Shown here: in pieces, positions 17,252 to 53,923 of the stretch
Position numbering within the stretch: the stretch's first letter is position 1
Layout of the letters: every line of letters begins with the position of its first letter
Source of the DNA: a virus
Virus record (IMG/VR): IMGVR_UViG_3300045117_000026
Location: 1 to 64,000 of that record
DNA: 64,000 bases
Direction: 5' to 3' (one strand)
The notes under the pieces: model-generated
Told to the model about the DNA's origin: nothing
Database searches by the model: none
The model's input: the letters and a program-made list of their open reading frames with translations, nothing else
Made by a program: the position numbers and the translations under genes

Positions 17252-17623
17252 CTACTCCTGTTCGATTGTAAAGCTATCAAGGAACTTATCCATCTTGGAA
17301 ACTATTGCTTTGGCTTTCGCCATAGATGAAGCATAAACAATAACTATGTCATTCGACAAATTGATAGAACGTGACTCCATAACCTCTCTAGCAATATCAG
17401 CACAAGAGGCATAGTAGTTTGGATTGTAATTAAGAGGACATTTCGGGCATCTCATCTCTTGATTTGTCTCCCATGGTACTGTGCCACATATGCAATATCC
17501 TTCAATACAGTAAGCGTTACGAGACAACTCGTACAGCCTTTCAGGATTAAACCTCTTTTTGAGCCTGCTCCACTGCTTGTCAGTTAGTCTTATAGCAAAG
17601 TCATTATATTTACCTATTCTCAT
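17252..17623 (-). CDS. Cys-containing paralog family, copy 1
   Basis: M.IG.Y...I.L.D.QW..L..RF.P, CIC, C..CPL shared with 38237 and 38618. Confidence 0.7.
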   Translation of the reverse strand: MRIGKYNDFAIRLTDKQWSRLKKRFNPERLYELSRNAYCIEGYCICGTVPWETNQEMRCPKCPLNYNPNYYASCADIAREVMESRSINLSNDIVIVYASSMAKAKAIVSKMDKFLDSFTIEQE

Positions 17624-22867: not shown

Positions 22868-24088
22868 TTAATCCAAACTCAACCCAGGTGTCACCGTAAC
22901 CCTGTGTTTAATCAGTTCGCAATAGTTCTCGGATTGCTCCACCAGTATTGACCGCCTGCCTAATTGAGTCGCTACCTTTCCTGTAGTACCTGTTCCGGCG
23001 AACGGGTCAAGGACAATTTGCGGTTCAATAGGAGCATTACAATCGCACTGTGGTACCCAAGAACTTTTAGTTACCTGCGACATTCGTTCCAAAATGCGTT
23101 GCTTCAGGCGTGAGGGAGTAACGGCGCCAGTACCTTCATAATCTTTCATGTCGCTACCGAAATACTCGCCGTCACTATTACAGCCGGCTCGTTTCATTTC
23201 CTCGGTAATCTGGTGGTCAATAATAGTAATCTCACGCTGCCAAGGTTTGCCACACTTTGAGCATTGTCCTTTAGCAGATGTAGCCATTGAAATACACAGG
23301 CGAGGTATCTCTTCGGGGAAAGCAGCGAAGTGCGAAAGCCAATTATTTGTCCCACACTTCCGGCACCACCGCCCATCTTCTTTGAGAACAGTCCCCTTGG
23401 TGAATTCATCCCGCCCGTAAATCGTCTTGCACGTCAGGCACATATTGGCTGAGTAAGATACAGTCGGTATCTCCCATATTGCTCGGATGTTTCTGCCCGA
23501 GTTTGCGCACCTGTCACCAGGCTCGACTTGCCTCATGCCGTGCTCACCCTGCCCCTTAAGCTTCATGTTGCCATCGCCATATTCATTGCGCATTCTGGTT
23601 GACTCTTTATATGGGACACGGACGGCTTCCATGTCAAAGAAGTAATCTTCATTTAGCACAAACATAAGAATATGCTCGTAGTCAATCGTCGGTCTATCCG
23701 GTGCGGATGACGGCATTGAATTCGGCTTCACCCATATTATATCAGCTCGTGGTATCCAGCCCTCATCAGCTAATGCTATAGCAATGCGATGCGGGATTAA
23801 CTCGAGGTCCTTTGCTCTGGTGACGCCGAACTTATCGCCGACATTCCAGAAAACAACCCCGTCATTACGCAACACTGGTAACAGCGAGCCACAAAAGAAA
23901 TCAACTGTATGCTGTACATATTCGGCAACCGTTTTCTCTGCTCCAAACCATGCGTTACCATCATAGTCTCGCTGATTGAAATACGGTGGCGAAGTGACTA
24001 CGCATTGTACCTGGTAGGGCAGGGTGGCAAGGTCCTTGTTATCTCCATGATAGAGGGAGAGGAGAGGGGTCTGGTAAAAGACTTTCAT
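22868..24088 (-). CDS. N4-cytosine/N6 DNA methyltransferase with Zn-ribbon insertions
   Basis: TSPPY, HFAAFP, VLDPFAGTGTT; several CxxC. Confidence 0.9.
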   Translation of the reverse strand: MKVFYQTPLLSLYHGDNKDLATLPYQVQCVVTSPPYFNQRDYDGNAWFGAEKTVAEYVQHTVDFFCGSLLPVLRNDGVVFWNVGDKFGVTRAKDLELIPHRIAIALADEGWIPRADIIWVKPNSMPSSAPDRPTIDYEHILMFVLNEDYFFDMEAVRVPYKESTRMRNEYGDGNMKLKGQGEHGMRQVEPGDRCANSGRNIRAIWEIPTVSYSANMCLTCKTIYGRDEFTKGTVLKEDGRWCRKCGTNNWLSHFAAFPEEIPRLCISMATSAKGQCSKCGKPWQREITIIDHQITEEMKRAGCNSDGEYFGSDMKDYEGTGAVTPSRLKQRILERMSQVTKSSWVPQCDCNAPIEPQIVLDPFAGTGTTGKVATQLGRRSILVEQSENYCELIKHRVTVTPGLSLD

Positions 24089-29874: not shown

Positions 29875-30261
29875 TTACTCGCTTGAGACTTCACCATAGA
29901 ACAAATCAACCTCGTTCTCAGCAAAGTCTACCCCGTATTGCTTACATATACGGATGAACATCAATCTCAGTTCGCGCACTGTTAGGTTGGCGCAGAGTTT
30001 GTCAAACGCTGGTATGCCCACATAATATGGTTCATAATCTCTCCAATATACCTCATCATCATCAACGCCATAGGCAAGTTCTCCGCCAATGAACACCAGC
30101 GCCTTTCCTTGGTTAGTACCACCCCATCCTTCGGTGCACTCATCCAGCTTTATGAGCTTGTGGATTTTCTCGTTGAACTTCTTGTCATCCGAATTCGCAA
30201 CACCCACGATGAGGAAGCTGGATGAACTCGAATTGGAGACAAAGCCGGTTCTGATTTTCAT
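29875..30261 (-). CDS. MKxRxxFVSNSSSSSF-family protein
   Basis: N-terminus MKIRTGFVSNSSSSSF. Confidence 0.75.
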   Translation of the reverse strand: MKIRTGFVSNSSSSSFLIVGVANSDDKKFNEKIHKLIKLDECTEGWGGTNQGKALVFIGGELAYGVDDDEVYWRDYEPYYVGIPAFDKLCANLTVRELRLMFIRICKQYGVDFAENEVDLFYGEVSSE

Positions 30262-30279: not shown

Positions 30280-30633
30280 TTAATCGTGCCAAGCTTCGGA
30301 AATATCCCTGATGTCTGTATCCGAAAGGTCTTCGCCAAATGCTTCCTTGAGTGAAAGGTTCTTAGTGGCAGCAAGGGACAGCAAGGCAAGCATAATTTTA
30401 ACCTTGGTAGTATACCGGAATGAAGCCCCTGTTTCGTCATCCTTTAATGAGTCATAACTGCGACCAATGTAGAGATCGTCATAGGGTGACACCCTGACGG
30501 TGAGACCATGCTTACCACAAATGTCGCTGATTTGCAAAGCGTCAAATGCGCAATCAAGGAGATTGAGGTATACTCCGTGGATCAGGAAAGAGGTGGTACT
30601 ACTGTTGCTTACGAAGCTTGTTCTTAGTTTCAT
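30280..30633 (-). CDS. MKxRxxFVSNSSSSSF-family protein (paralog)
   Basis: N-terminus MKLRTSFVSNSSTTSF. Confidence 0.75.
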   Translation of the reverse strand: MKLRTSFVSNSSTTSFLIHGVYLNLLDCAFDALQISDICGKHGLTVRVSPYDDLYIGRSYDSLKDDETGASFRYTTKVKIMLALLSLAATKNLSLKEAFGEDLSDTDIRDISEAWHD

Positions 30634-30645
30634 GTTTAGCCTCCT

Positions 30646-31452
30646 TTACACCTCATTAACGTAAACATAATCTACCAAGAGGTAGATAGCATCTTGTTTA
30701 TCAGAGGGGGAGAGCGGAGCATCGGTGCGCAGTAGGTTAATAAGCCTTTTAGCAATAGACTTATCAAGGGTATCTCGCAAAGAACCAGATGTTGCCGGAC
30801 CATTGTAATTGTAATGAGCCTCAAGAGGGTACTCGTCTACAAGAGGAGCTTTTGATACATTAGTCTCTGGTAGCGGGTCAGCCTTGACTGTTACAGGCGC
30901 AGTTGTGAATACTTGAGTTAGCGTGCCTTTACCTCCCCATGTATCTGCTTTATCCGGCATTGACAAGAGGAATGTTTTTGTTTCCTCTGCCCATTTGGTA
31001 TGATCGGGCCAGTCATGCACATGGACCGTAATCTCTTTCACCATGACTGCACCGCACAATGTCTTTCCTTTGACTGATGCGCTGATGGCGCCGGAGTTGG
31101 TGATTATCAAGCTGACAGGATTATTGGCGTCTACATAACTCTGATCAGCCGGCGAATGGAATGTCCCCATGTTGTGGTGCGAATGTATGACGCCGACTTT
31201 CCGCTCCGGGGAGACTTCCCCAGGTAACATCTCGCACCAGCCGGAACTGGGTTTGACCTGGCGTGGAATAACGATGTCATCGACAAGTACCAGTTCATCA
31301 GAGATCGTGCCGAGACACCATCCAATCCACTCAAGGTTGCTCATTGCATCGCATAGGGAACATGCTTTGGCAAAGGCGTCAAGGGTTATTGAAACATCTG
31401 GGAAGATACCGGGTTTTCCGCATTGGGTAATACACTCTTTAGATTGCCACAT
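30646..31452 (-). CDS. JAB/JAMM metallopeptidase (deubiquitinase-like)
   Basis: E in LEWIG plus HSHHNMGTFHSPAD (HxH-x7-S-x2-D). Confidence 0.85.
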   Translation of the reverse strand: MWQSKECITQCGKPGIFPDVSITLDAFAKACSLCDAMSNLEWIGWCLGTISDELVLVDDIVIPRQVKPSSGWCEMLPGEVSPERKVGVIHSHHNMGTFHSPADQSYVDANNPVSLIITNSGAISASVKGKTLCGAVMVKEITVHVHDWPDHTKWAEETKTFLLSMPDKADTWGGKGTLTQVFTTAPVTVKADPLPETNVSKAPLVDEYPLEAHYNYNGPATSGSLRDTLDKSIAKRLINLLRTDAPLSPSDKQDAIYLLVDYVYVNEV

Positions 31453-32483
31453 TATGTCTTAATCTCCTTTCTTCCTTTTTCCAGACCTGCCATGAATGCC
31501 TCGCAATAATCGCAATTATGTTGCTTACAGTTAAGACACTTACCAGGTCCGTCAGCTAGACCCTTATTGTATGCTCTGCAGTCCTCACAATCTCTGTGTA
31601 CGCATTCATTACAATTACCAAAGTCAACTTCATCCGCGTCAACCTTACCGCAGTTCTCGCACGCATTTGCGACGGCTCTACAACCATCACACTTGTCGCA
31701 GTCATCGCAGTCCCCACGGTAGCAGTCATCGCACATTTCTCTGTGCGCCTTGCATTCGTCACGTTTACAGCGGTCACAATCATCGAAGCTGTCTTTCTTG
31801 GTACATGTCTTGCACAGTTCTGGGCTGGCAACCTCTTGAGTAACAATCCTGGGTTGTCCTACATCACCGATATCCATTGATAGTTGAAGCAATGGAAACT
31901 TCATGAGCTTGGCTACACCCATTGCGGCGGCCGCTATAGCTGGGACGACCCAGCTTGGGATAAAGTTGTAGGCCGCTATCTTACCGTTCTCGTCTACTAC
32001 GGCAGGAACTTTCTCCTGAACCCATCCGGGTAACTTGTCTGCTACCATGAAGTGAGTACCATCATACCCAAGCTTTGTGTATGTCACTCCATAGTCAACT
32101 GACCATTTGTAGTTAATCCCCTGGGAAATCAGAGTGTCGGTACAATCTATCAGATTGTCGGGTAAGACATAGTCATTGTGGAAATCCTCGAGCGGGAACT
32201 TTACGATATACGCATTACACGTAATATCCGGTCGCAGGGCTATGATAAGCTCCCTTGTCGCTTCAGCTTTATACTGGTCAAGCTGATGGATTGTGAACGG
32301 CAGTCGGTTCAGGTTAGAAGCTTCAATCCGGTCAGGGTCGTACAGTTCAATGTGCGGTACCCCTGACATCGCAAGGAGCAAAGCTACCCAAGCACCGACA
32401 CCACCGCACCCAACTACTGCCACCTTTTGTGGCATCAAGAGGTGCAACTCCTGTTGCCTGTTATAAATTATGTCGGCTTCCAT
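31452..32483 (-). CDS. E1/ThiF-family activating enzyme with poly-CxxC tail
   Basis: Y.RQ, GCGGVG, D.D.IE.SNLNR, K, DCTD; about ten CxxC in C-terminal third. Confidence 0.9.
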   Translation of the reverse strand: MEADIIYNRQQELHLLMPQKVAVVGCGGVGAWVALLLAMSGVPHIELYDPDRIEASNLNRLPFTIHQLDQYKAEATRELIIALRPDITCNAYIVKFPLEDFHNDYVLPDNLIDCTDTLISQGINYKWSVDYGVTYTKLGYDGTHFMVADKLPGWVQEKVPAVVDENGKIAAYNFIPSWVVPAIAAAAMGVAKLMKFPLLQLSMDIGDVGQPRIVTQEVASPELCKTCTKKDSFDDCDRCKRDECKAHREMCDDCYRGDCDDCDKCDGCRAVANACENCGKVDADEVDFGNCNECVHRDCEDCRAYNKGLADGPGKCLNCKQHNCDYCEAFMAGLEKGRKEIKT

Positions 32484-33343
32484 AATCCTGATCCTTTCGC
32501 TTCGTCATTAAAGTCTTCCTTCAATGCATTAATCACATCATTGTACGTCGGGATATTATCCTCTGGATTTTCATGCATACCGGAAAACTCGTTAATGTAA
32601 CCCTGTTGTGCTATTGCTTGTGTTATTAGTTGTGTCGGCTCGGGGTTTAAGGGAACGTTGCGATAAGCAAGAGATCGCACACAGTTATTGTACCCGGAGC
32701 CGTAATAGTTGCGGAACGGGGCGCCGTCCTGCCGGAAGAGACCAATGTTACTGCATACAGGTGATCTGGTGCCTGTGAAACGGAGTTGCAGGAATACGTT
32801 ACGGCTTGAGGCTTCTTGTATTTCCTTTGGTATATCGTAGAACTTCCCGTGACGTTCAAGCTTTGTCGGGCACCAAGTGAACGGGACTGCATATACAAGA
32901 CAGTCTAGATGATAGAACAACCTCTTACCGCTAACGGCGTATTGTATGGTGAACCACTTTGGGAACTTGAACTCGTTTGACGTATTTACTTTTCTGAGGA
33001 ATTCGTTAATGGCAATGACAGCAACCCTTTTGTTAGAACTTGCTTGGTCTGCCATTACACCAACCAAACTCTTTATGATAGGCTCTTTGGTTTTCTTGTT
33101 GGTGACGGAAACGTCGCAGGAGCCAATGTCTGCGTCGTTTAATTTCAGGGTAATGGAGTTGTCTTCCGTCCTTAGAGCGTCAATGATCTGCTTATACTCA
33201 GGTGGCTCTTCAGGCACATGTCCGTTTGATGCCAGCCATACCGACAGCGGGCAACGTTCACTAAAAGAACAAGCGGTGTGCGGTATCAATGACTGCGGAA
33301 CACGTGCACCGTTGACAGACATTACTTCTTGATTTGTCGGCAT
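32468..33343 (-). CDS. unknown protein in Ubl operon; E2-like candidate
   Basis: Between Ubl and E1, overlapping the E1 start; Cys in FRNYYGSGYNNCV; assignment mainly contextual. Confidence 0.4.
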   Translation of the reverse strand: MPTNQEVMSVNGARVPQSLIPHTACSFSERCPLSVWLASNGHVPEEPPEYKQIIDALRTEDNSITLKLNDADIGSCDVSVTNKKTKEPIIKSLVGVMADQASSNKRVAVIAINEFLRKVNTSNEFKFPKWFTIQYAVSGKRLFYHLDCLVYAVPFTWCPTKLERHGKFYDIPKEIQEASSRNVFLQLRFTGTRSPVCSNIGLFRQDGAPFRNYYGSGYNNCVRSLAYRNVPLNPEPTQLITQAIAQQGYINEFSGMHENPEDNIPTYNDVINALKEDFNDEAKGSGLWKPT

Positions 33344-35020: not shown

Positions 35021-36004
35021 TTACACCTCGTATATCGGACATCTGCGGTAATTGGTTAACAGCCTATTCCGGAAAGCAATAGTGTGTCGATTGTTCCATA
35101 CCTCGTTCATAAAGTTACCAGAATGAACAACATCCACGCCATCGCACACATTCTCGGTGAATGAGCAAGGGAAGCCAATGCCTTTAGCGTTAATGTAGTA
35201 GGAGAACAAGGTTGACTCACACGGCTCAACGCTACTAGCATCCACAGATACGCCGGAGTTGATTACGTTATGAGCACTACAGCTATCAAAGCCGACAGTT
35301 ACCTGCCTGTCCAATGATGCTTGGAGTAATCGCTGATATGACCTTGTATCCTTTACTTTACTGAACCTTGATGTCTGTCCGCGACCCTTTGGCTTAAAGG
35401 CAAGAAAGACAATAGCGTTGACCTCGAGACCCATAGCTTTAGTGTTACTCACCTCGGTAATAAGGCGAACGCAATCATCAAGTGTTTCCTCAGAGAGAAG
35501 TGCATGGATATTATTCTGCGTGATACCACGTTTCCTTAATTCATGGAGAGCGGTAAAGCATACGTCTTTGTCATAGTACGACACCGCCACCGCTCCACAC
35601 AGCTTGGAGAGAATGTCATAGTACCTCGGCGTCATACGGAAGCCGTTGATAGTAATGTTGGGTATAACGCCTTTGCTTCGAGTATACTCAAGGATGGCGG
35701 GGAGGTCGGGGTTGCCATCAATGTCTCCTATGCCGAACGCTATTTGCGTGAGGTTACTTGGAGCTTTATCAATGATACCCTTGAATGTATCAAGGCTCAT
35801 GTTGTAACCATCAGCAGTATTACCCTTATAGCAGAACCTGCATCCTTGATGACAGACGGTGCTCAGTTCAATATCAAGGAGTTCCGGACCAAGTGGCGAC
35901 ACCTGCGGGTCGTCCTGTATGGTGTTACCCCAACGCATAAAGAAGCCGTTGTTTTGATTGAATATGTAGTTGTAACCAGGGTGCTTAACTACTTTGAGCG
36001 ACAC
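35021..36004 (-). CDS. radical SAM protein with Twitch/SPASM-like end
   Basis: CHQGCRFCY, KPKGRG, FDSC, CES...PCSF. Confidence 0.88.
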   Translation of the reverse strand: MSLKVVKHPGYNYIFNQNNGFFMRWGNTIQDDPQVSPLGPELLDIELSTVCHQGCRFCYKGNTADGYNMSLDTFKGIIDKAPSNLTQIAFGIGDIDGNPDLPAILEYTRSKGVIPNITINGFRMTPRYYDILSKLCGAVAVSYYDKDVCFTALHELRKRGITQNNIHALLSEETLDDCVRLITEVSNTKAMGLEVNAIVFLAFKPKGRGQTSRFSKVKDTRSYQRLLQASLDRQVTVGFDSCSAHNVINSGVSVDASSVEPCESTLFSYYINAKGIGFPCSFTENVCDGVDVVHSGNFMNEVWNNRHTIAFRNRLLTNYRRCPIYEV

Positions 36005-38236: not shown

Positions 38237-38617
38237 TTAGGCTTCTTCCACAGGTTCAAAGGTGTTGAGGAAGTTGAACATCTTGGAGACTATCATCCGC
38301 GCTCTCGACTCAGAGTCGGTAAAGACCGTGACATTAAATATACCGAGATGAACTTGGTCTGTATCCAGTATCTCATGCGCCGGATACTTGCAAGGAGTAT
38401 AAGCATCATCAGAGTTCCTATGAGGGGTGAAGCTTAACGGACATGCATCACATGGGTTTCTGCTATCTATGGTATCGCAGATGCATCTCCCCGCAATCTC
38501 GTAAGTGTTTCGCAATGAATTGTAGGAGAGAAGTGCCGGGTCAAAGCGGGTCTTAAGAGTGCTCCATTGTTGATCGGTTAATACAATCTTGATTCCATTA
38601 TAGTAACCTATTTTCAT
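38237..38617 (-). CDS. Cys-containing paralog family, copy 2
   Basis: Aligns by eye with 17252 and 38618. Confidence 0.7.
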   Translation of the reverse strand: MKIGYYNGIKIVLTDQQWSTLKTRFDPALLSYNSLRNTYEIAGRCICDTIDSRNPCDACPLSFTPHRNSDDAYTPCKYPAHEILDTDQVHLGIFNVTVFTDSESRARMIVSKMFNFLNTFEPVEEA

Positions 38618-38992
38618 TTATCTCCTTCGCTTAAAGCTCTTCAGGAATTCGCTCATCCTTGAAACTACCTCTTTGGCTTCTTCCGTAGAGTTGGTGGAGA
38701 GAGTAAGTCGGCTATGGTAGAAACGTACAGAACTTGTCTCCATGATATCCCTTGCGACTTTAACGCAAGGAGCGTAACTCTCGGGGTCGAAGCTAAGAGG
38801 ACATTGCTTGCAATCAGGGTACTCATACAGGGGATAACGGGGTATCGTGTCGCAAATACATTTCTCCTCAACACAGTGACCCTCAATTGCTTCGTGCTTG
38901 ACGATGTTCTTTGGATCGAACCTGCGCCGGAGCCTGTTCCACTGCTCGTCAGAGAGCAGGATTTCTTTACCCTTATACGTGCCAACCCTCAT
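38618..38992 (-). CDS. Cys-containing paralog family, copy 3
   Basis: Aligns by eye with 17252 and 38237. Confidence 0.7.
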   Translation of the reverse strand: MRVGTYKGKEILLSDEQWNRLRRRFDPKNIVKHEAIEGHCVEEKCICDTIPRYPLYEYPDCKQCPLSFDPESYAPCVKVARDIMETSSVRFYHSRLTLSTNSTEEAKEVVSRMSEFLKSFKRRR

Positions 38993-41238: not shown

Positions 41239-41814
41239 TTACGGACAAGAAGCTCTTGGTGACTCGTGTACATCTTTATAAGTGTCAACATATATATCAG
41301 GTATAGTTCCTGCGATCATACCTGCCGCTACAAGAACCGGGGAGTACGACCAAGCCGGTACAAAGTATTGTGTCTCTTCTCCAGAGTTGTTAGTGATAGC
41401 GAAGTAACATCCTTTGTAACTAATCTCCGCATAATTTGCTCCTAGTCCCGAGGCCCAGTCGGAGCATGCGACCCGTTCGGAAGGACTTTTAATACCGCAC
41501 GTTACAATCCACTGTGGTTGCTCGCAAGAATAAACAGGTGCGCTTGTGGTCCTAATATTCAATTTACAATCGGGTCTAATGGACAGTATCATTCTCCTTA
41601 CTGCTTCTACCTTATAGGCGCCAACCTGATGGGGCAAAAGAGCTAACATAAGTTCCTCGTTGGTTTTGCTCTCGACCCTGGCAGGATCAATCAGCGTAAT
41701 GGTTTTGATACCAGATGTCGCCAACAACAGGGACTCCAATATACCAATGGAGCCAAGTCCGACTACAATGACATGGTCATCCAATGGATTATGCTGTTTA
41801 ATACCTTCATCCAT
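41239..41814 (-). CDS. degenerate E1/ThiF paralog
   Basis: GLGSIG, IDP..VE, QVG.YKVEA; lacks SNLNR and DxxD. Confidence 0.7.
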   Translation of the reverse strand: MDEGIKQHNPLDDHVIVVGLGSIGILESLLLATSGIKTITLIDPARVESKTNEELMLALLPHQVGAYKVEAVRRMILSIRPDCKLNIRTTSAPVYSCEQPQWIVTCGIKSPSERVACSDWASGLGANYAEISYKGCYFAITNNSGEETQYFVPAWSYSPVLVAAGMIAGTIPDIYVDTYKDVHESPRASCP

Positions 41815-42215
41815 TAGCCTGACATCTCCTTAACATCCTTGATTGCGACCTTTATCATCCTATGCTCCTGCTCCAGCGTCTCCCTGTACTCGAAGCTCTT
41901 AAGGACAATAATCTGATAAGCCGCTTCCATCTCTACCCGTGGTGGGTTCAAGTAGGAGTACTTGGCAAGTTCCCAACATAGGTCGGTAATGTCTTCCTCG
42001 ACCCCACAGGATGCGCACTTGTAATATATAAAACCGCCGTTGAAGCGGAGCATTGGGACACCACCTTTCGGATTTGCGGTTAAAGTATCGGATTCACCAC
42101 AGACAATCGTCCCGTGTATTTGAATAGGAATACGGATAGCGCACATGTTCTATTCTTACCCCTTGGAAGTTGGAAATGTGGGGCCCGGGGACGGCATACC
42201 CGGGCCCCTATAACC

Positions 42216-43328
42216 TTAAGGAAGCCGGAGCTTGTGGCGTCGCTCCATCGTGGAAAAGGCTTCCAGGCGCTCGCGCTCGGCTATGAAGCACTCCTGCGCC
42301 CTCATCCCCTGCTCCACGGATATGCGGGTCGTGTCCCTCTCGATCTCGTCCCTATCGGGACATAGTCTTGATACCAAGTCCTCTATCTGCTGGTAGCGCT
42401 CCTGGGCTTCCCGCTTCTCTACCAACTTCAGCATGAGTGCGTGGTCACGGTACACTTCCCTCTTCGCAGCCACCACAATGGTAAGCACCATGTCAGGCGG
42501 CACCTTGTGCCACCTTGGTTTGTACCGCTTCATCGCCACCTGTAGGGTGATGGGGTCCTTGCGGTACTTCCACCAGTATTCCATTCCCCCGTAGTGATGG
42601 GGACAATCGGCGGCTTCTTTGGAATAGACGCAGTTGGTACAAGTCTGTTTAACCGCTGTACCTGGCTTCTTCGGGTTGTATACCAGAGTCCGCATTAACT
42701 GCGCCTGACGGAGCAATGACCTGTCGGGCTTGCACCGCCATAAGCCGGAATGTTGTTCGTAGGTGAAAGGTGGTCGCTCATAAGTGCCGCACCTTTCGGT
42801 AATGATGTCATTACGGATGTTGAACTTGTGGATGTAATTGGCTAGGGGATGCTCCATGCTATCCCAGTGGTCACACCCCTTGCGAGTGGTACACTGCGGG
42901 CACCGGCATCCCACAACCCGTGGGTAGCCATTCCCGTCACATAACGCTGGCACATTCAACCCTGGATAGACAACGGTGTCTTCACCAGCGGTAAAGTCCC
43001 AGCCGAATGCAGTTACCTTGCCGGTGTCATGGTCATGCGGAGGCTGCCGCTTGGGACAGACCTCAGCGGCGATGCACCTCAGATTTTCACTCGGTCGGTA
43101 ACACTTCAAATGTACTGCAGAGAGCGGCATCCATCGGGGCTTCTTCCGTTCCTCCTCTTGGAGACGGAGATATTCCTCGAACGCCGCATTCCGTTCAGCC
43201 GTCGGTAACGAGTTGATCTCCTTGAGGGTACGGCGCTTGGTAACTTGCGCCGTACCTTTCAAGGACTTCCGGCGGACAGAGGGTGCTCTCGTGATCGTAC
43301 CGTCGAGGTTAATAAGCACCCTACCCAT
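42216..43328 (-). CDS. Cys/His-rich early protein with N-terminal LDG motif
   Basis: 370 aa; starts MGRVLINLDGTIT. Confidence 0.65.
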   Translation of the reverse strand: MGRVLINLDGTITRAPSVRRKSLKGTAQVTKRRTLKEINSLPTAERNAAFEEYLRLQEEERKKPRWMPLSAVHLKCYRPSENLRCIAAEVCPKRQPPHDHDTGKVTAFGWDFTAGEDTVVYPGLNVPALCDGNGYPRVVGCRCPQCTTRKGCDHWDSMEHPLANYIHKFNIRNDIITERCGTYERPPFTYEQHSGLWRCKPDRSLLRQAQLMRTLVYNPKKPGTAVKQTCTNCVYSKEAADCPHHYGGMEYWWKYRKDPITLQVAMKRYKPRWHKVPPDMVLTIVVAAKREVYRDHALMLKLVEKREAQERYQQIEDLVSRLCPDRDEIERDTTRISVEQGMRAQECFIAERERLEAFSTMERRHKLRLP

Positions 43329-43331
43329 TGA

Positions 43332-43640
43332 CTAGTTTCCTGCCGGTGCAGTTTCGATGGTTGCCGGGACTTCGGTGACCTTGGCAGCGACCTTCTTGGG
43401 ACGGGGAGTAGCCTTCTTCCCCGGACGAGCCAGGAGATTGGAGGCGATTTTGACGCAGTAATCAAGGATGGCGGAATCGGGGGCGTTGGTGAAGCGCTTC
43501 TGGAGGCGATCCCATGCCTTGAGTCCCTCATCGGACAGGGTCGTGCTCTTGCGACCGGGGTACTTGACCTCACCGTTGCCAGAGGCGCCGCCGGTGATGG
43601 TCCCATCGAGTTTGATTTCCACCTTGGAACGAGTAGACAT
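43332..43640 (-). CDS. RHH-like protein with LDG motif and basic tail
   Basis: IKLDGTITG; STTLSDE..helix..AILDYCV; first gene after promoter. Confidence 0.6.
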   Translation of the reverse strand: MSTRSKVEIKLDGTITGGASGNGEVKYPGRKSTTLSDEGLKAWDRLQKRFTNAPDSAILDYCVKIASNLLARPGKKATPRPKKVAAKVTEVPATIETAPAGN

Positions 43641-43780
43641 CTTGGGTCTCCTTTCCTATTTGGTGCCACACCCGGTAAGCGTATGCTCCTCGCTGGTGTA
43701 GTCACCTGTCAGGTGCTTGCGGAGCTTTTGGTCTATCGACCCCTCGACCCCACGCTCCGCCCTGCCTCCCTGACAGTGAT

Positions 43781-43809
43781 ATTCTAGCATAGCCAGACTA
43801 GGCAGTCAA
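43781..43809 (-). promoter_or_regulatory. sigma70-type early promoter
   Basis: TTGACT-17-TAGAAT with extended TG; same hexamers as 15118-15146. Confidence 0.8.
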
Positions 43810-43867
43810 GTCGGTACTGTGGGTGAACTGGGTGCTGTGGGAGGCCAGGGTGCTGACTACCGGCTGA

Positions 43868-44560
43868 GTATATACCCACAGAGTATATACCCGCGTGGTA
43901 TATACCCCCCTGATAGCCCACTGACTCAGGTGGCATAGGTGGGCAGTACCCGGCCGGAGGAAGCCCCGCAAACACGCAAAATCCTTTCAGGAAGGGGCAT
44001 CCTTGGGGGTGGCAAGGGAATCAGTCACCCAGGTGGAAATGGACACCAAATAGGGGCATTGCACAACGTTTTCCTCGTGGGCGTTTAAGGGGCCGTAGGT
44101 GGACAAGGTATATACCCACGTTGGTGCTGGCACCTCGATTTGCGTTTAATAGGCCGGGTATATACCCAAACGGCACCCCCACCATCTCAGGTATATACCC
44201 GCGTTAGGTATATACCCAAACGAGTGGGCTATTAGGCTTGGTATATTCCCCTGTCTCTATCTTTGTACTGCACCTAGTACTATATCTAGTATTATATATT
44301 ATATTATATATTATATATATATATATATATTATATAGTGCACAGGGGGGTGGGGATGATATTGCTTATAGAGAGCAATATCATATGGGGTGGGGCTGTAG
44401 TATGCACATGTAATTAACATGCACTTAATAGACCCCACCCACTGTGCTCTTTATAAGCACAGTACCCCACCCCCCATTGTTGTGCAATATGGACTAAGAC
44501 CTATATATGGACCAAGACCTATGTAGGTGCTGTAGGTATATACCGTCTTAATAGCCCACT
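43868..44560. repeat. GTATATACCC repeat cluster, AT-rich core and nested inverted repeat
   Basis: 7 exact GTATATACCC; (TA)n about 44280-44335; imperfect palindrome centred near 44412. Confidence 0.85.
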
Positions 44561-44646
44561 GAAAATGGTAGTGGACACCAACTACACCTATATGACCATA
44601 TGCACCATGGTACGTCTGCCTGGTGTTCGGCTTGCCTCAGTAATAG

Positions 44647-44675
44647 TTGACAAGGCATAGCCGATATGATAGACT
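44647..44675 (+). promoter_or_regulatory. sigma70-type early promoter (divergent)
   Basis: TTGACA-17-TAGACT with extended TG. Confidence 0.8.
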
Positions 44676-44850
44676 ATTTACAGTCAGACGACAGACGTTT
44701 GACAGGAAAGGAGAAAGGGTATCATGGGTGACACGGGGTGTAGGTCTTTCGGACGTCAAGTGCGACTCTCACACACCGATGGCTACACGGCTAGAGTACA
44801 ACGATGTCTCGAGGACTTACATCGCAAGGTAAGGCAAGTGAGGAGCTAGG

Positions 44851-45066
44851 GTGAATTACTTCGTCAACAAGAACCAAACACCTGAAGAGAGGAGAGCCAA
44901 GTATGCTCTCCTCCGCTCCCACGGATTTAGCCCCATGAGGGCAAGGAGAATGAGAGACTGCACAATGTCCACGATAAGGAGTTTCGTCAGCTCCGGGTTC
45001 ACCGATAATTGCTTCGGTAGACCCACGACACACATCTCACTCGATGGTATAGTAACGAAATATTAA
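44851..45066 (+). CDS. small basic protein with C-terminal ISLDGIVT motif
   Basis: GAGGAG SD, GTG start. Confidence 0.6.
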   Translation: MNYFVNKNQTPEERRAKYALLRSHGFSPMRARRMRDCTMSTIRSFVSSGFTDNCFGRPTTHISLDGIVTKY

Positions 45067-45264
45067 GGAGACGGCAGTGGACCCAATTGTACAACTAATA
45101 GAGGCTATCGCCAGGGACATCACCGTAAGGGATGAGAATGGCAACCCTACACTCGCTACTGACTCCGACAGGGAACTAGGGATTCTCGGAATACTGGCTG
45201 CTTACTCCATTGGTGAAGAGGCTGTCACCAATATCCTGGGGAAATAAATATAAAGGAGAACGAA

Positions 45265-45594
45265 GTGAAAGGACTTATCAAGCACCACGAAGTCGCAGTC
45301 TCCGAACTCCCGATGTGCGACATCTGTAAGAAACAGGTAGCCGCCTACGATGCCAAGATGAAAGCGGGGCCGTGGGCCTACATGTGCGAGAGCTGCTTCG
45401 GCTCTCACGGGATCAGCACCGGGCTGGGGCTGGGACAGCGACTCATCTGGTGCGAACCAGTGAACCTGCCCGCCACCGCTCCAGTGCCCTCTGTACCACT
45501 TCACGTCGGCACCAACAAGGTGGTGCTCTTCGGCACACCGCTCAATGTGAAAGTGGGAGTCAAGGGGCAAGTCACCAAAATCCAAGTCATCTAG
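45265..45594 (+). CDS. Zn-finger phage protein
   Basis: CDIC...YDAK...GPWA.MC..C...GLG.GQ. Confidence 0.7.
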   Translation: MKGLIKHHEVAVSELPMCDICKKQVAAYDAKMKAGPWAYMCESCFGSHGISTGLGLGQRLIWCEPVNLPATAPVPSVPLHVGTNKVVLFGTPLNVKVGVKGQVTKIQVI

Positions 45595-45607
45595 ACCACT
45601 GACCAAA

Positions 45608-45647
45608 GGGGGCCGGGGCCTTTCTCCCCGGCCCCCTTTTCTTTTTG
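45608..45647 (+). terminator. intrinsic terminator
   Basis: GGGGGCCGGGG/CCCCGGCCCCC stem plus T-tract. Confidence 0.85.
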
Positions 45648-45659
45648 TCCGCAGTTAAA

Positions 45660-45940
45660 TACCCGGTATGTATATACCCATAGGTATACTTGGAGCAAGC
45701 TCCACTAGCCAAAGGCGATTCAAGAGGTGGTGCACATGGATAATACCCATACCGCAGGTGCTTGCCCCGTTTGCGTTTAATAGGACGGATGGTATATACC
45801 CATTGGTATACACGGAATATACCTATTGGCGTTTAAGAGGACGGTACGGATGGTATATACCCACGACGTGGGAGCGCTCAAGATTGCGTTTAAGAGGACG
45901 GTATATACCCATAGGTACGTATACGTGGGAATATACCCAC
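45660..45940. repeat. second GTATATACCC cluster with GCGTTTAA(G/T)AGGACGG units
   Basis: 4 exact GTATATACCC; three GCGTTTAA(G/T)AGGACGG about 57 bp apart. Confidence 0.85.
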
Positions 45941-45960
45941 GACAGCCTGGAGGGGGCCAC

Positions 45961-45993
45961 AAAAAAAAGAGGCTGTCTTGCGACAGCCTCTTT
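45961..45993 (-). terminator. intrinsic terminator
   Basis: AAAGAGGCTGTC/GACAGCCTCTTT stem plus T8 on - strand. Confidence 0.85.
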
Positions 45994-46013
45994 CACTGTG
46001 TTGCTACTCTGGC

Positions 46014-46295
46014 TTATGGCATCGGTAGTAAGTCTCGATCGCCTTTGCCTTCGACGATATCGTGTCTGCCTGAAGCCGTCATGTCGCCATACAGCCGACT
46101 TCGCCAAAATTGGCAGCCGGCTTTTTTATTTAGCAAGCCAAAGCTTTTCAATATCTTGGCTTGCTTCTGCCTGCCTTTTCTATCAAGACTTTTATACTTC
46201 AAGTCTTGACACGGCTTGGCAGCCGGACACACTAAACACTTGTAGTTGCCACGTGTGACTACGCCGTCGCTGATGCCTGATAAAATCTCTGCCAT
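46014..46295 (-). CDS. small Cys-containing early protein
   Basis: CLVCP....C...C; GAAAGAGG SD. Confidence 0.6.
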   Translation of the reverse strand: MAEILSGISDGVVTRGNYKCLVCPAAKPCQDLKYKSLDRKGRQKQAKILKSFGLLNKKAGCQFWRSRLYGDMTASGRHDIVEGKGDRDLLPMP

Positions 46296-46560
46296 ACTTT
46301 TGCCTCTTTCGTTTCATATTTGGCAGTTTATACGATACTGCCAAACGTCTTGATTATGATAACTTTGCTTTTAACTCTGCCAATGTAGCGTTTTTTGCCT
46401 TGAGTATCTTTTTGACGTCTGCCATCTTGCCTATGATTTTGACAATCAACATCGCTGCCTCTTCTCTTATGTATTGGCAGTTCTACGCTACTGCCAAACG
46501 GCTGAGATGTATTTAGCAGACTATTTGCTTACTCGCCGTCTGCCATGGCGATTTTCGTCT

Positions 46561-47022
46561 CTAGACTTTCGCCTCTTCTGCTTCAGCCTTCGCCGTAGCT
46601 GTTTTCTTCGTCTCTGCCTTTGCCTTTGCCTCTGCCTTTGCCTTTGCCTTTGCTGTAGCCTTGGCAGTAGCTTCAGCCTTTGACTTGATTTCGCTTCTGA
46701 GTTCAGCAATTTCATCAGCAAACGTAGTCACTGATGCAGCCTCAAGCCTTGCTATGGCTGCTTGAATAGCTGCCTTGCGATGCGATGACGTGTTATAGCC
46801 AGACTTGACAGCAGTGTACATCACGCAATAGTTCATCACCATTGTCATTGATACCTCATCGCCTTTATTCTTCGCCTGTAGCCATAAGCGAACGAACATC
46901 AAGAATGCTAAGTAAAGTGGCTGTATGAAGTAATGAAGAGTATTTCTCTTCACTTGAACACCGCCGGCGTCTTTGCTTCTAGCGCCGCTGATTTTGCCAT
47001 CTAGAGAGATTATTGTTTTCAT
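46561..47022 (-). CDS. RHH-like protein with LDG motif and histone-like AK tail; paralog of 43332
   Basis: IISLDGKISG, QVK, NYCV, (AK)n tail. Confidence 0.65.
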   Translation of the reverse strand: MKTIISLDGKISGARSKDAGGVQVKRNTLHYFIQPLYLAFLMFVRLWLQAKNKGDEVSMTMVMNYCVMYTAVKSGYNTSSHRKAAIQAAIARLEAASVTTFADEIAELRSEIKSKAEATAKATAKAKAKAEAKAKAETKKTATAKAEAEEAKV

Positions 47023-47274
47023 TTTAGTAGCCTTTTCTACTTTAACAGTTAGGCGTTTAATATTTCGTCTAACTCTATCATTCTAGGCTTCAACATCTAA
47101 GCTTTAATGATAGTGATTGCCTGTCTAGCTTTGAATTTGCCTGTTTATAGCCTCCTGACTATTGACGCCGGCTAATAGCCGGCTGATTAGCATAAGCTAA
47201 TCAAGGCAATCATTGAAACTGTATTAAATTGTTAACTGTTTTCGTATCGTCGTGACATACGAAAGTATGTCACT

Positions 47275-47303
47275 ATAATATATTTCAACATTTGATATGT
47301 TAA
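47275..47303 (-). promoter_or_regulatory. putative sigma70 promoter
   Basis: TTAACA-17-TATTAT upstream of hairpin-rich leader. Confidence 0.5.
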
Positions 47304-47769
47304 TACGTGTAACCACTACACTTTTACGAATGAGCTTTATAGGTATCCTTACATGGTTAAAGCCAGGTGTATGGGGGATTCCCTCTCGTCCAATTTGCGT
47401 CGGGCCAGTGGAATTTGGGCAATTCTACTTATGGTGATTGAGCGAAGTGGACGGTGGCGGATGGTGGTGGGGATGATAGAGTAGCCGCATAGGAGGGCGA
47501 ATTCGATGAAGAACATAACTCGGGCGAAATATATAACCAAGGTAAAATACATTGCGATTGCGTTGCTAGGGGCGATTTTGGCGCCTGTTTTGCTGTGGGT
47601 GGCACTCGGGGTCGCCTTGCATATCAGGTGCCGTAAAAACAGCCCCAGACAACGATTTAGCGAGATACTACAAAAGGTCGGCACTTGTTGATAACTACCG
47701 ACAATTTGTATGGCCCTTGACACGGGGTCTTCGCTCTGTTAAAACTATATATTAGAGGACGACCCGAAT

Positions 47770-49338
47770 ATGACAAAAAATCCGACAATGTTGCCCACCC
47801 CGGAGATAGAACTCCTCAATGAGCTAGAGGGGCAACTCAACCGCCCCGAGAGCAAGGAAGCCAAGAGAGCCAAGAGCGACTTCGGGTATTTTATTTCCAA
47901 GATATTCCCCGCATGGAAACTCAAGCCCTTCCACAGGGAAGCCATCAGGTTACTGGAATCCACGAACTCCGAAGATGAGAGATTGCTGTTCCTCTGGCCC
48001 CGTGGATTCGGCAAGTCGTCACTCACCTCGGTCGCCTACCCGCTATGGAGAATCGCCAAGAACCGCGATGTCAGGGTAGTTATTGCCACCAATATCCAGA
48101 GGCTCGGTATGGAGTGGCTCCGCGAGATGGAAGACATCATGATGAAGAACTTCATCTACCGGGATTGGTTCGGCAACATGGTCCCAGAACCGCGGACGCT
48201 TACCTGGACCGATACTGAAAAGATTGTTCTAGGACGGACGCCGATGGCAACCCATACCACTTTGTATACCATCGCTGTCGGCGGGTCAGCTCTTGGCAAG
48301 CGTGCCGATGTATTGATAGTTGATGACATAATGGAGCCGGAAGAGGGTATCATGACGTCGCTGATGGCGAATAAGGTCAATGAATGGTTCTGGAAGGTCC
48401 TCTACCCCGTATGCGAACCCGGCAGCAAGAAGATAGTCATCGGGACACGGTTTGGAGACGGTGACCTTTATGGTCGCCTTGTTGACAGGCGATGGAACAC
48501 CTTCCGGATACCGGCGCTTGACGAGCATGGCGAGTCAACCTTCCCTGAAAGATTCTCCACCAAGGAACTACACTCCCGCCGAGAGGATATGGGTACCACT
48601 ATTTTCAATCTTCAATATATGAACGATATCGGTGGTCTGATAGGGAACATGCTCAAGAGCGATTGGCTCCACTATTATTTCGAGACCCCGCCGCTTAGAG
48701 AGATGACCGTTATGATGGCGGTTGACCCACAGGCGTTCGACAAAGTAAAGGTCAAAGACGGTACGGACCCGGACTATTTCATTATCATGGTTGGCGGATA
48801 CTATGCCAAGATAAGAACACTTTATCTACTTGACATGATCCGCACCAGAGCAACACCCATGCGACAACTTGAACTTATCAAGACACAACTTGATAAATGG
48901 CATCCGGCGGTGACAGGCATTGAAAGCAATGCGTCCCAGGTCTTTGTTGCCGAGATGGTACAAAAGACAACCAATCTCCCAATCAAGAAAGTGCCGTCCG
49001 TTACCAGCAAGGAACTTCGCTTCATGAGTATGTCGGCACTGTTTGAGGCCGGCCGGATATTGATTCCCGGTACCAAGGACGCCGATACCGTCATGCCAAG
49101 AGAGGAGTTCAAGGCATTCAAAGATGAGTGGGCTTTGTTCCCCAACGGGAAACATGATGACACGCTCGACGCTGCTTCCATTCTTGCCAGGATGCTGCCG
49201 AACGCTTCACCAAAAGCAGCCGTTGGCTCGCTTGATGTCAAGGACGATAAACCGCAACAGTTTATGACGAGGCCTATAGTCAAAATGTTCGACAGGACAA
49301 TTGGGCCAAATCGTGTTAATATACTTAGGAGAATGTAA
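47770..49338 (+). CDS. terL: terminase large subunit
   Basis: PRGFGKS Walker A, IVDD Walker B, AVDP, HDD.LDA nuclease motifs. Confidence 0.95.
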   Translation: MTKNPTMLPTPEIELLNELEGQLNRPESKEAKRAKSDFGYFISKIFPAWKLKPFHREAIRLLESTNSEDERLLFLWPRGFGKSSLTSVAYPLWRIAKNRDVRVVIATNIQRLGMEWLREMEDIMMKNFIYRDWFGNMVPEPRTLTWTDTEKIVLGRTPMATHTTLYTIAVGGSALGKRADVLIVDDIMEPEEGIMTSLMANKVNEWFWKVLYPVCEPGSKKIVIGTRFGDGDLYGRLVDRRWNTFRIPALDEHGESTFPERFSTKELHSRREDMGTTIFNLQYMNDIGGLIGNMLKSDWLHYYFETPPLREMTVMMAVDPQAFDKVKVKDGTDPDYFIIMVGGYYAKIRTLYLLDMIRTRATPMRQLELIKTQLDKWHPAVTGIESNASQVFVAEMVQKTTNLPIKKVPSVTSKELRFMSMSALFEAGRILIPGTKDADTVMPREEFKAFKDEWALFPNGKHDDTLDAASILARMLPNASPKAAVGSLDVKDDKPQQFMTRPIVKMFDRTIGPNRVNILRRM

Positions 49339-52043: not shown

Positions 52044-52253
52044 ATGAAACTAAAGGAAGACTTCGGGGTAACGGCATTATTCGGTTGCCTGATAATTGTC
52101 GGCGCCTTTGCTGTTATCCTTGCCGCCCTGTTAAAGGACAAGATAGAGTTCGAGTCTGTTTTTGTTGCTGTTTCATCCTGGGTAGGGTCGATAATCACAG
52201 CGTACGTACTCAAGGCTAAGACCAACGGCTTTGGGGGGAAAGAACAAAAATGA
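52044..52253 (+). CDS. small two-TM protein
   Basis: Two hydrophobic helices. Confidence 0.55.
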   Translation: MKLKEDFGVTALFGCLIIVGAFAVILAALLKDKIEFESVFVAVSSWVGSIITAYVLKAKTNGFGGKEQK

Positions 52254-53923
52254 CTGAAGAAAACGGGTCCCTCGCTAGCAGACCAGATGAAGTTGTTGGA
52301 GCTGATGGCTCGTTGAATGCGGCTGGGCTTCACAAGGACGGTCGAGAGGGACCCGCCGAACTCAATGAACAGCATATCCTGACAGGAATGCCACCGATAC
52401 CGCAAATATTACAGTGCGTTGTCACCTTTCAGGCAGTTAACCTTGTCGGCTCCTCTGTATATGACGGTAGCAAACCCCACGATGCCGATGTTCTGGTTCG
52501 CTCGTCAAGCTCGCTCCCAGAACTCGAGCGTAATCTGGAAACACAACTTGGGCCAAAGGTACATTTCCTCTACGAGACTAAAGGGCCGTCTTGGGACCAC
52601 ATGCCTCTCGGCGACTTTGTTCTTTATCCGGTTAACGGCAAACCAGCTATAAGCGAAAGTTCTGCAGCAGATACGCTAGCTGGAAAGTTACGGCCAATAC
52701 TCGTCGACCCTCGGTATCTCAACCTCGTCAAATCTTCCGGAACTATCAAATTCCGAGTGAACTCCGATTCGCCTGACCCCGGTTTCTTTCTGAAGTTACA
52801 GAGGATGATGGGTGACTTGGGGCAGGATGCGGTGGGTTTCTCTCAGAAGACTGAGGTGGGGGAGGTACCGGTGGGGATGCTTTATTTTATTCCATATCCG
52901 GCCTTTCAGAAAGTCGTGGTTAACGAACCGGACTTTAAGCGATTCTATATTAAGAAAACAAATGTTGAGGAGAATGCAATGCTTGTAAAAGATTTTTTGG
53001 AGTTGATTGAGGGTGTCGGTCTAGTTGAGGGAACGCGGCCGCCGTGGGGTTCTCCAGGTGGCAAACGCTTCATGGCAAGGCGTCTTATAAAGATGTTTCC
53101 GGAAGAGTTCAAAACCTATGTCGAGCCGTTCTTTGGCGGTGGCGCCGTTTTCTATGCGATGGATAATCAAAAGCAGGGACGCAAAGAGATTATCAACGAC
53201 CTTAATAAAGACATCGTCCGTGCCGTCAAGTTTATCCAGCATATATCCGACGCACAAATTGACGCCCTGTCGAAGAAGGATTGGAAGCCGACTGCCGATC
53301 ACTATGCTTATCTTAAGAACTTGAAGCCGGTGCGGGAAGTTGATTGGATGTACCGCTTCCTCTACATGAAGCGTCATTCCTACGGTGGCAATATCGGTCA
53401 GCAAGGATTGAAACAAGCCACCCACACCCCCGCCTACTTTGAGAACCTGAAGAGGGTGAGAGAGCGTCTCAAGGGTGTCGATGTCCGTAGCGAAGACGCT
53501 GCGAAACTCATCCCCAAAGTTGACGGCAAGGACGTGTTCTTTTTCCTTGACCCGCCGTATCCTGAGAAGACAAAGAACTGGTTTAATCTCGGCTGGATAG
53601 AGATGGACGACCTCGTCAAGCTGGCAAAGGGGATGAAAGGCAAGTTCCTGATGACATTACAGGCCGGTACCAAGGTCCGGAGTGCTTTCAAAGACTTCAA
53701 CGTCAAGTCAATGAAGACATATGCCTACATTATCACCAATCGTCCAGGACAGGCCCCTGCAGTCCGCAACGAAACCATCATCACGAACTACGATAAGAAG
53801 AACGTCAAGGAAGCTTTTCCTGAGAAGTTCTTTACTATTACTGCGAGTGATGGCATTACTGTCATCGAGCAGAAACTACTGACGCCTGAAGAAATGGAAG
53901 CCCTCGAGTTTTCTGAGGATTAG
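52250..53923 (+). CDS. Pol-beta-like nucleotidyltransferase fused to Dam-class methyltransferase
   Basis: LVGS....HDAD; then PGGK, YVEPFFGGGA, IND, FLDPPY, E.IITNY. Confidence 0.8.
   Translation: MTEENGSLASRPDEVVGADGSLNAAGLHKDGREGPAELNEQHILTGMPPIPQILQCVVTFQAVNLVGSSVYDGSKPHDADVLVRSSSSLPELERNLETQLGPKVHFLYETKGPSWDHMPLGDFVLYPVNGKPAISESSAADTLAGKLRPILVDPRYLNLVKSSGTIKFRVNSDSPDPGFFLKLQRMMGDLGQDAVGFSQKTEVGEVPVGMLYFIPYPAFQKVVVNEPDFKRFYIKKTNVEENAMLVKDFLELIEGVGLVEGTRPPWGSPGGKRFMARRLIKMFPEEFKTYVEPFFGGGAVFYAMDNQKQGRKEIINDLNKDIVRAVKFIQHISDAQIDALSKKDWKPTADHYAYLKNLKPVREVDWMYRFLYMKRHSYGGNIGQQGLKQATHTPAYFENLKRVRERLKGVDVRSEDAAKLIPKVDGKDVFFFLDPPYPEKTKNWFNLGWIEMDDLVKLAKGMKGKFLMTLQAGTKVRSAFKDFNVKSMKTYAYIITNRPGQAPAVRNETIITNYDKKNVKEAFPEKFFTITASDGITVIEQKLLTPEEMEALEFSED

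Follow-up and report, generated by a model that had tools for sequence, protein, structure and literature searches.

Short terminal peptides on unrelated phage proteins are recurring and poorly understood, and the locus described here raises the question of why several early proteins of one uncultured phage carry the same one. The sequence analyzed consisted of bases 1-64000 (64,000 nucleotides, nt; hereafter the window) of the IMG/VR virus record IMGVR_UViG_3300045117_000026, a linear record of 79,568 bp with an estimated completeness of 67%. A preliminary description, made from the sequence alone, had reported an LDG-centered peptide on four early proteins and a weaker version on a fifth, and all of the quoted peptides were found in the corresponding open reading frames (ORFs) (5/5; P370, P102, P153, P71 and P93). 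We found that three copies, all at the N-terminus (P102, P370 and P153), were secure, whereas the membership of P71 was doubtful and P93 should be dropped. Our tentative interpretation is that this tag is an interaction peptide, which would link proteins acting at arrays of a palindromic box (GGTATATACC).

A short N-terminal peptide on three early proteins

The carriers, the copies of the tag and the candidates that were considered and set aside are as follows (aa, amino acids; RBS, ribosome-binding site).

43332..43640, minus strand: P102, 102 aa, an ORF that opens the long leftward operon and has an AAGGAG RBS
43587..43625, minus strand: tag copy in P102, residues 6-18, KVEIKLDGTITGG (..KVEIKLDGTIT)
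42216..43328, minus strand: P370, 370 aa, Cys-rich orphan with N-terminus MGRVLINLDGTIT, beginning 4 nt past the P102 stop
43284..43322, minus strand: tag copy in P370, residues 3-15, RVLINLDGTITRA
46561..47022, minus strand: P153, 153 aa, first gene of the second leftward unit, N-terminus MKTIISLDGKIS
46981..47019, minus strand: tag copy in P153, residues 2-14, KTIISLDGKISGA
44851..45066, plus strand: P71, 71 aa, GTG start, GAGGAG RBS, C-terminal motif ..THISLDGIVTKY followed by the stop; doubtful member
45025-45063, plus strand: C-terminal copy in P71, with the core pattern at residues 62-69 of 71
46014..46295, minus strand: P93 (..GISDGVVT), rejected as a member
41814-42146, minus strand: P110, directly downstream of P370, beginning MCAIRIPIQIHGTIVCG, with the near-miss RIPIQIHGTIVCG; rejected as a carrier

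In P102, P370 and P153 the tag comprises about 13 residues with the consensus [KR]-x-x-I-x-L-D-G-x-I-[TS]-[GR]-[AG], and the similarity reaches past the core motif (residues 9-16, 6-13 and 5-12, respectively) into G/R-A/G-x-S. All three copies are located within residues 2-18 of their proteins, whose genes lie within 4.8 kb, and a flexible linker, either Gly/Ala/Ser or basic, connects each copy to the body of the protein. The tag-bearing N-terminal tail of P102 precedes a ribbon-helix-helix (RHH)-type core (residues 28-72) and a Lys/Pro/Ala-rich C-terminal tail; in P370 the N-terminal tag leads through a basic linker into a Cys/His-rich core, with long helices at the C-terminus; and in P153 the tag is followed by a hydrophobic/helical middle part and a Lys/Ala/Glu-rich tail. 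No Pfam or PHROG family was assigned to any carrier, P153 having sub-threshold Pfam matches only. In a word-index protein search P370 and P102 retrieved only themselves and P153 retrieved nothing; ESM Atlas was also empty for P153, and P71 had no sequence match in PDB. For P370, one distant homologue was found among 1.84 billion representatives, together with three metagenome loci.

Significance of the shared peptide

A search of all six frames of the whole 79,568-bp record with the pattern [ILV].LDG.[IV][TS] returned only four real ORFs (P370, P102, P153 and P71), in addition to one match that runs across a stop codon, whereas residue-shuffled proteomes gave a mean of 0.025 matches. Because the motif had been defined after being seen, less flattering tests were also run. 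When each carrier was left out of the profile in turn, P370, P102 and P153 all ranked first, with scores reached in none of 100 shuffled proteomes; P71 also ranked first (score 22.3), yet it was matched in 17 of the 100. The score of P93 against the position-specific matrix (8.75) was noise, below the level reached by about 11 proteins per shuffled proteome. Thus, of the four carriers and weaker fifth originally proposed, three are secure, one is marginal and one is lost. Pair-specific shuffles for the three carrier pairs equaled the observed similarity in 0, 16 and 1 of 5000 trials. We estimate that the clustering within 4.8 kb adds about 100-fold significance and that, with clustering included, the three N-terminal copies exceed chance at a level of about 1e-3 to 1e-4. 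P110 was tried as an additional carrier and rejected, as its N-terminal near-miss scored 15, the level of about five proteins per shuffled proteome.

Conservation at the protein level

Residues that are identical between carriers were encoded by different codons at 5/8, 6/7 and 3/7 positions, the upstream RBS contexts differed among the carriers, and the distance of the tag from the start codon varied from 12 to 24 nt. Moreover, the tag of P153 was retained inside a block (45961-47340) that is poor in GGA, GGG and GGT (0-0.7 per kb, compared with about 12-17 per kb elsewhere), where its Gly codon is GGC. The differing codons, together with the use of GGC for the tag Gly of P153, indicate that the constraint acts on the peptide: the shared element is kept at the protein level and is not a DNA repeat. 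On the other hand, the P71 codons GAT GGT ATA GTA fall on a promoter-like sequence, TGGTATAGT, and look similar to one half of a box; this copy may therefore be explained by a constraint at the DNA level.

The block that contains P153 is itself unusual. It is sharply bounded (1.4 kb) and spans P153, a 32-aa ORF and P93; GGA, GGG, GGT, TCC and CCC each occur 0-1 times in it, whereas GGC is normal and GCC is enriched (39 per kb versus 15 per kb). Gly codons in the block are almost all GGC (10/10 in P93).

Carrier bodies and the RHH-like core of P102

Single BLASTP comparisons among the carriers gave E values of 0.018, 0.039 and 17, the first of which is a weak P102-P153 alignment of 66 residues. 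However, comparison of the P102 family with P153 by hhalign gave a probability of 0.2, and a hidden Markov model (HMM) of the P102 core, without tag and tail, retrieved neither P153 nor P370 from the phage proteome. As far as can be detected from these comparisons, the three bodies appear to have no relatedness beyond the tag, in agreement with the preliminary description.

An AlphaFold2 model of P102, built on a three-sequence alignment that included the groundwater orthologues described below, predicted a strand (residues 30-34) and two helices (37-49 and 55-71) at a predicted local distance difference test score (pLDDT) of about 66-78, which corresponds to the beta-alpha-alpha topology of an RHH core of about 45 residues. 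In a comparison of this model with 48,161 chains by VIA-align, the top rows were nearly all RHH proteins (including MazE6, NikR, SvtR, PutA, AmrZ, ParD and Arc), although with Z scores of only 2.5-4.4, low values being expected of a 45-residue monomer. ESM Atlas gave RHH_1/MetJ/VapB leads, and Foldseek gave E values of at least 1.6. Pfam RHH profiles found no family in P102 even at E<=10, a weak negative since RHH families are short and divergent. As the modeled core, the structural comparison and the ESM Atlas leads agree, P102 is best read as an RHH DNA-binding protein.

Ahead of this core lies a tail of 27 residues, consisting of the tag and a GGASGNG linker, which is predicted to be flexible: residues 1-24 had pLDDT values below 50 (block means 36-37), and no secondary structure was predicted up to residue 23. 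For P370, the AlphaFold2 model was poor (pLDDT 40) and could not be used for structure searches; it flanks the Asp-Gly with strands at residues 4-6 and 12-14, at low confidence. The beta-hairpin that had been proposed for the tag finds no support beyond this low-confidence model.

Three paralogues encoded in the window on the minus strand (17252-17623, 38237-38617 and 38618-38992) share the N-terminus M[KR][IV]G.Y...I.L[TS]D.QW..L[KR].RF, with pairwise scores of 70-76. Two of them were the best non-self matches of the P102 RHH-core profile in the phage proteome (E = 0.026 and 0.054), and these paralogues may be further RHH-like proteins.

The control region

The tag genes lie at a control region situated to the left of the terminase gene, with the following features.

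43853..45945, no strand: control region, with an AT-rich tract and a mini-operon enclosed by two GGTATATACC palindrome clusters
43781..43809, minus strand: sigma-70-like promoter of P102/P370, TTGACT-17-TAGAAT with TG
47275..47303, minus strand: sigma-70-like promoter of the P153 unit, TTAACA-17-TATTAT
45965-45994, minus strand: terminator of the P153 unit
44647..44675, plus strand: sigma-70-like promoter of the P71 mini-operon
45605-45639, plus strand: terminator of the P71 mini-operon

There are nine exact GGTATATACC boxes in the whole 79.6-kb record, every one of them within 43897-45909 (about 2 kb). The region starts three transcription units, with sigma-70-like promoters in front and hairpin terminators at their ends: a first leftward unit (P102, P370 and onward), a rightward unit (P71, a 56-aa gene and P109) and a second leftward unit (P153, a 32-aa gene and P93). 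Each of these promoters has P102, P71 or P153 as its first gene and the carriers flank the box arrays, which confirmed the promoter-proximal location reported at the outset.

In the rightward mini-operon (44851-45594, plus strand) all three genes have a GTG start, 5-6 nt past a strong GAGGAG or AAGGAG. The N-terminal Cys-rich domain of P109, the third of them, corresponds to phrog_23287 and is 42-56% identical to proteins of Arthrobacter, Gordonia and Streptomyces phages.

Elsewhere in the window are genes of a tailed phage (the large terminase, TerL, at 47770-49338, a portal and a protease-capsid fusion), several DNA methyltransferase genes, a primase/helicase-like gene and an E1/JAB cassette. 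The sequence of this phage was also present in 12 lake-water metagenome runs from 2018-2025; contigs of four lake-water runs compared with the window had zero differing letters and showed no microdiversity, and no RNA data set was among the runs that contain the sequence.

Relatives from groundwater

The only relatives found were three groundwater contigs of 2-3 kb (L006, L007 and L008), which come from 0.1-um assemblies of Hainich H43. Searches of 50,697 phage records by blastn and tblastn gave nothing for the region or for P102; scans of IMG/VR with TerL, P370, capsid, portal, P0003, a P102 alignment and a P370 alignment yielded no usable relative, and a scan of GTDB genomes with the P370 alignment yielded none. 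The box-pair pattern occurred at 27 loci in IMG/VR, of which not one encoded the motif or any homologue of a carrier; L009, the single locus inspected, belonged to an unrelated phage.

Both L006 and L007 carry GGTATATACC boxes, tandem near-consensus promoters, a P102 homologue, a hairpin and a P370 homologue, whereas L008 contains only a 5'-truncated P370 homologue and downstream genes. Exact boxes were located upstream of the P102 homologues, five in L006 (222-792) and three in L007 (118-301). Thus, the module of boxes, P102 and P370 is conserved. The P102 orthologues of these two contigs show 37% and 32% identity, and an HMM built from them alone retrieved P102 at E = 8e-14. By manual count, the core is about 53% identical between the lineages, and the tail has about three residues in common. 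The strand PGRK[ST]TTLS of the P102 family and the boxes are both conserved across lineages.

It can also be observed that the GGTATATACC box, the PGRK[ST]TTLS strand and the P370 family travel together, and that the P102 and P370 homologues of both contigs enclose a conserved perfect hairpin (GTAGGTAGTAGC ... GTTACTACCTAC; L006:1664-1700 and L007:1013-1050). This hairpin is absent in the window, where the P102-P370 gap is 4 nt.

The groundwater P102 homologues begin with MIDVTKFTTPLEE and MLDMSKRLEDLS, and the P370 homologues with MLDVTKLIEELD and MLDIARYISDLD. In both contigs the two homologues are adjacent and have similar N-termini (MIDVTKF/MLDVTKL and MLDMSKR/MLDIARY; pattern M[LI]D[VMI][TSA][KR]), with a pair score of 25 in each (p = 0.03 and 0.008, pre-specified pairs). 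By contrast, tail scores across lineages were at noise level (10-16). The tail of the L006 P102 homologue scored 25-26 against the P370 homologues, 19 against its L007 orthologue and 12 against the orthologue in the window. The tails thus group by lineage and not by gene family, a signature of co-evolution or gene conversion. A core common to both lineages, [KR]-h-x3-L-[DE], was suggested by MAFFT and was dropped, since the cross-lineage tail scores were at noise level.

Possible roles of the tag

We tentatively favor the view that the tag is a tethered interaction peptide, specific to the lineage, that connects proteins acting at GGTATATACC box arrays. This view fits best because of the terminal position of the tag, the flexible linker, the unrelated bodies, the promoter-proximal co-location and the way in which the tails track each other between lineages. 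The N-terminal tag of P102, P370 and P153 would be a probable strand/Asp-Gly turn/strand, through which co-expressed early proteins would bind one another or one common partner. We infer that P102 binds the boxes; P370 and P153 would use the same tail to pair with P102 tails, or to bind a common partner, at the arrays, and the most plausible purpose would be that both join P102 sitting on the boxes. If this is a real docking tag, three orphan early proteins would be tied to one complex at a conserved palindromic box array, which would give a handle on the functions of the carriers and on the organisation of the early control or replication region in this lake-phage lineage. Tails that match within a genome and differ between lineages would also be a compact example of co-evolving interaction peptides.

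Several results weigh against this view. The preliminary description had named absence of the motif from orthologues as an observation that would refute a tag, and strict IxLDGxIT was absent from the only orthologues found, those of the groundwater contigs; in favor of a tag, the P102 and P370 homologues of this second lineage again match at their N-termini, with a different sequence. This replication is modest, as L006 and L007 are not mutually independent, and in L006 the first seven codons of the two homologues are identical at 18/21 nt, unlike in the window, which makes gene conversion plausible there; recent DNA homogenisation could explain the shared N-terminus of L006. Enrichment held for the pattern search (four ORFs compared with 0.025), but a de novo motif search with a reduced alphabet did not pick out the tag motif and ranked others first, the methyltransferase motif DPFxGxG at the top. 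When the first 25 residues of 147 ORFs were compared all against all, the three LDG pairs scored 38, 35 and 33, inside the range of shuffled-proteome maxima (34-40), and a mutual triple at >=33 appeared in 1/58 shuffled proteomes, while two true paralogue sets scored 70-76. Structure models of the tag were all of low confidence, no partner of the peptide, host or phage, was identified, and no ParA/ParF-type ATPase (PF13614, PF01656) was matched in the whole 67%-complete record, with positive controls in 14/14 genomes. The notion of a portable tag is consistent with a constraint at the peptide level, its position at the extreme N-terminus, the unstructured P102 tail ahead of a flexible linker and the unrelated bodies, but only three carriers are secure, all in a single genome lineage, and the statistics are modest.

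A more specific version of the interaction peptide, which we regard as unlikely, is that the tails form a lineage-specific self-recognition code, in which the box-binding RHH protein and its clients carry matching tails. If so, the tails would change together (IxLDGxIT here, MLDxxK in groundwater) while the boxes and the RHH strand stay constant, tail-tail pairing would select the early proteins that assemble on the box arrays, and such a code could set specificity between co-infecting relatives.

Common descent of the gene starts, with no function as a tag, is a rather unlikely explanation. The 5' ends of the genes would derive from one ancestral start, after promoter-proximal cassettes had been duplicated or had undergone gene conversion, the peptide persisting as a structurally harmless or generic N-terminal strand with no docking, and in that case the element would have little consequence. 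The nearly identical gene starts of L006, where the RBS contexts are also similar, would fit this well, as would the neighboring position of the carrier genes, the 66-residue P102-P153 alignment and the Lys/Ala-rich tails on both of these proteins; in the window, however, synonymous sites largely differ while the residues are kept, which points to purifying selection on the peptide, the bodies have no detectable relatedness and the tag survives in the compositionally odd block of P153. It is less probable still that a common strand-DG-strand sequence arose three to four times by chance and was noticed post hoc. The pair scores within chance maxima, the triple found among 58 shuffles, the failure of the de novo search, P71 and P93 at or near noise and the absence of the motif in orthologues are what chance would predict, but it would account poorly for three copies at residues 2-18 within 4.8 kb, for leave-one-out scores never reached by shuffled proteomes, for the similarity past the motif (G/R-A/G-x-S) and for the pairing repeated in a second lineage.

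Other functions of the peptide have to be considered too. It appears improbable that the tag is an N-terminal degron by which a host AAA+ protease would clear early regulators at a set time, even though the element is terminal, exposed and common to early proteins. ClpXP recognizes N-terminal signals, of which that of lambda O is an example, and the basic-hydrophobic pattern of the tag presumably bears a loose resemblance to published N-motifs. ClpX substrates have recognition motifs at the N- or C-terminus (PMC5415555), so that a single machine reads short, exposed terminal peptides of unrelated proteins, as it would in the case of the tag. However, a signal for a host protease should stay the same from one lineage to the other, and the tails of P102 and P370 do not. 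A DNA-contacting arm, by which the tail would be part of the DNA-binding surface and read DNA beside the GGTATATACC boxes in all box-binding proteins, is no more probable than a degron. The carriers do flank the box arrays, RHH proteins frequently rely on arms at the N-terminus and the tails of ParG modulate its binding to DNA; this reading is disfavored because the boxes are constant between the two lineages while the tails change, and in addition the tag is neutral to acidic (L-D-G-T-I-T) and not basic, and it is set apart from the RHH strand by a flexible linker of 10 residues. Finally, we consider it very improbable that the element is a nucleic-acid signal (a translational operator, a downstream box or a DNA site) or a capsid-targeting leader. 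A signal would suit the proximity of the tag to start codons and the overlap of the P71 copy with promoter-like, half-box-like sequence, but not the differing synonymous sites or the variable distance from the start codon. As for a leader, the otherwise diverse internal proteins of T4 have only a short N-terminal capsid targeting sequence (CTS) in common (PMC3012670), which resembles the tag in being a short N-terminal peptide on otherwise unrelated phage proteins. However, CTS carriers are late head cargo processed by the prohead protease, whereas the carriers here are promoter-proximal regulators or orphans; P102, as a probable RHH regulator behind sigma-70-like promoters, would be unlikely head cargo, and no [LIV]xE-type cleavage site was seen after the tag by inspection.

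Comparison with known systems

Two resemblances to known domains were considered and rejected. We take hhhxLDGTIT to resemble strand 1 and the loop of motif I of HAD hydrolases (DxDG[TV][LIV]); however, the position of the nucleophile Asp, two before the Asp of DG, is occupied by N, K, S and S in the four carriers, there was no HAD match in Pfam, and the fold needs a far longer chain than that of P102 or P153. IxLDGxIT also presumably resembles the last hairpin of the AbrB/SpoVT-MazE domain, but no carrier had a Pfam match to this swapped-hairpin domain of about 45 residues.

The closest parallels to P102 in layout are ParG of plasmid TP228 and similar type Ib centromere-binding proteins, which likewise have a small RHH core after an unstructured N-terminal tail (about 25-30 residues). 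Through its flexible tails, ParG engages its partner ParF and modulates the assembly of higher-order nucleoprotein complexes (PMC7308502), and its core binds arrays of short boxes (PMC7308502, PMC3130281). In ParG the partner-docking and assembly determinants are held in the tail, and the protein acts on short repeated boxes with AT-rich spacers. In contrast, P102 has no sequence similarity to ParG, and its tail peptide recurs on two proteins that are not of the RHH type, a situation not described for ParG. A full-text literature search for N-terminal motifs common to phage early proteins found none. Terminal tags on unrelated phage proteins are already known, as exemplified by the T4 CTS, and the IxLDGxIT peptide matches no described family.

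Other shared peptides and genes in the window

The strongest repeated peptide motif in the proteome was the methyltransferase motif [ILVM][DE]PFxGxG, which is present in five proteins, one of them encoded between the portal and capsid genes.

2496-3038: [ILVM][DE]PFxGxG protein
17637-18446: [ILVM][DE]PFxGxG protein
19357-20355: [ILVM][DE]PFxGxG protein
22868-24088: [ILVM][DE]PFxGxG protein
52250-53923: [ILVM][DE]PFxGxG protein

Two adjacent small proteins (29875-30261 and 30280-30633, minus strand) share the N-terminus MK[IL]RT[GS]FVSNSS[ST][ST]SF, with an all-against-all score of 72, and a radical-SAM enzyme (35021-36004, minus strand) is encoded about 4.4 kb upstream of them; the FVSNSS peptide of this pair looks like a radical-SAM-linked N-terminal tag. 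In the region 30646-33343, a ThiF/E1 gene (PF00899, E=8e-24) adjoins a sub-threshold Prok-JAB match (22.3 versus 25 bits). A second, shorter ThiF-like gene (41239-41814, minus strand; E=8e-11) is located in the P102/P370 operon, two genes downstream of P370.

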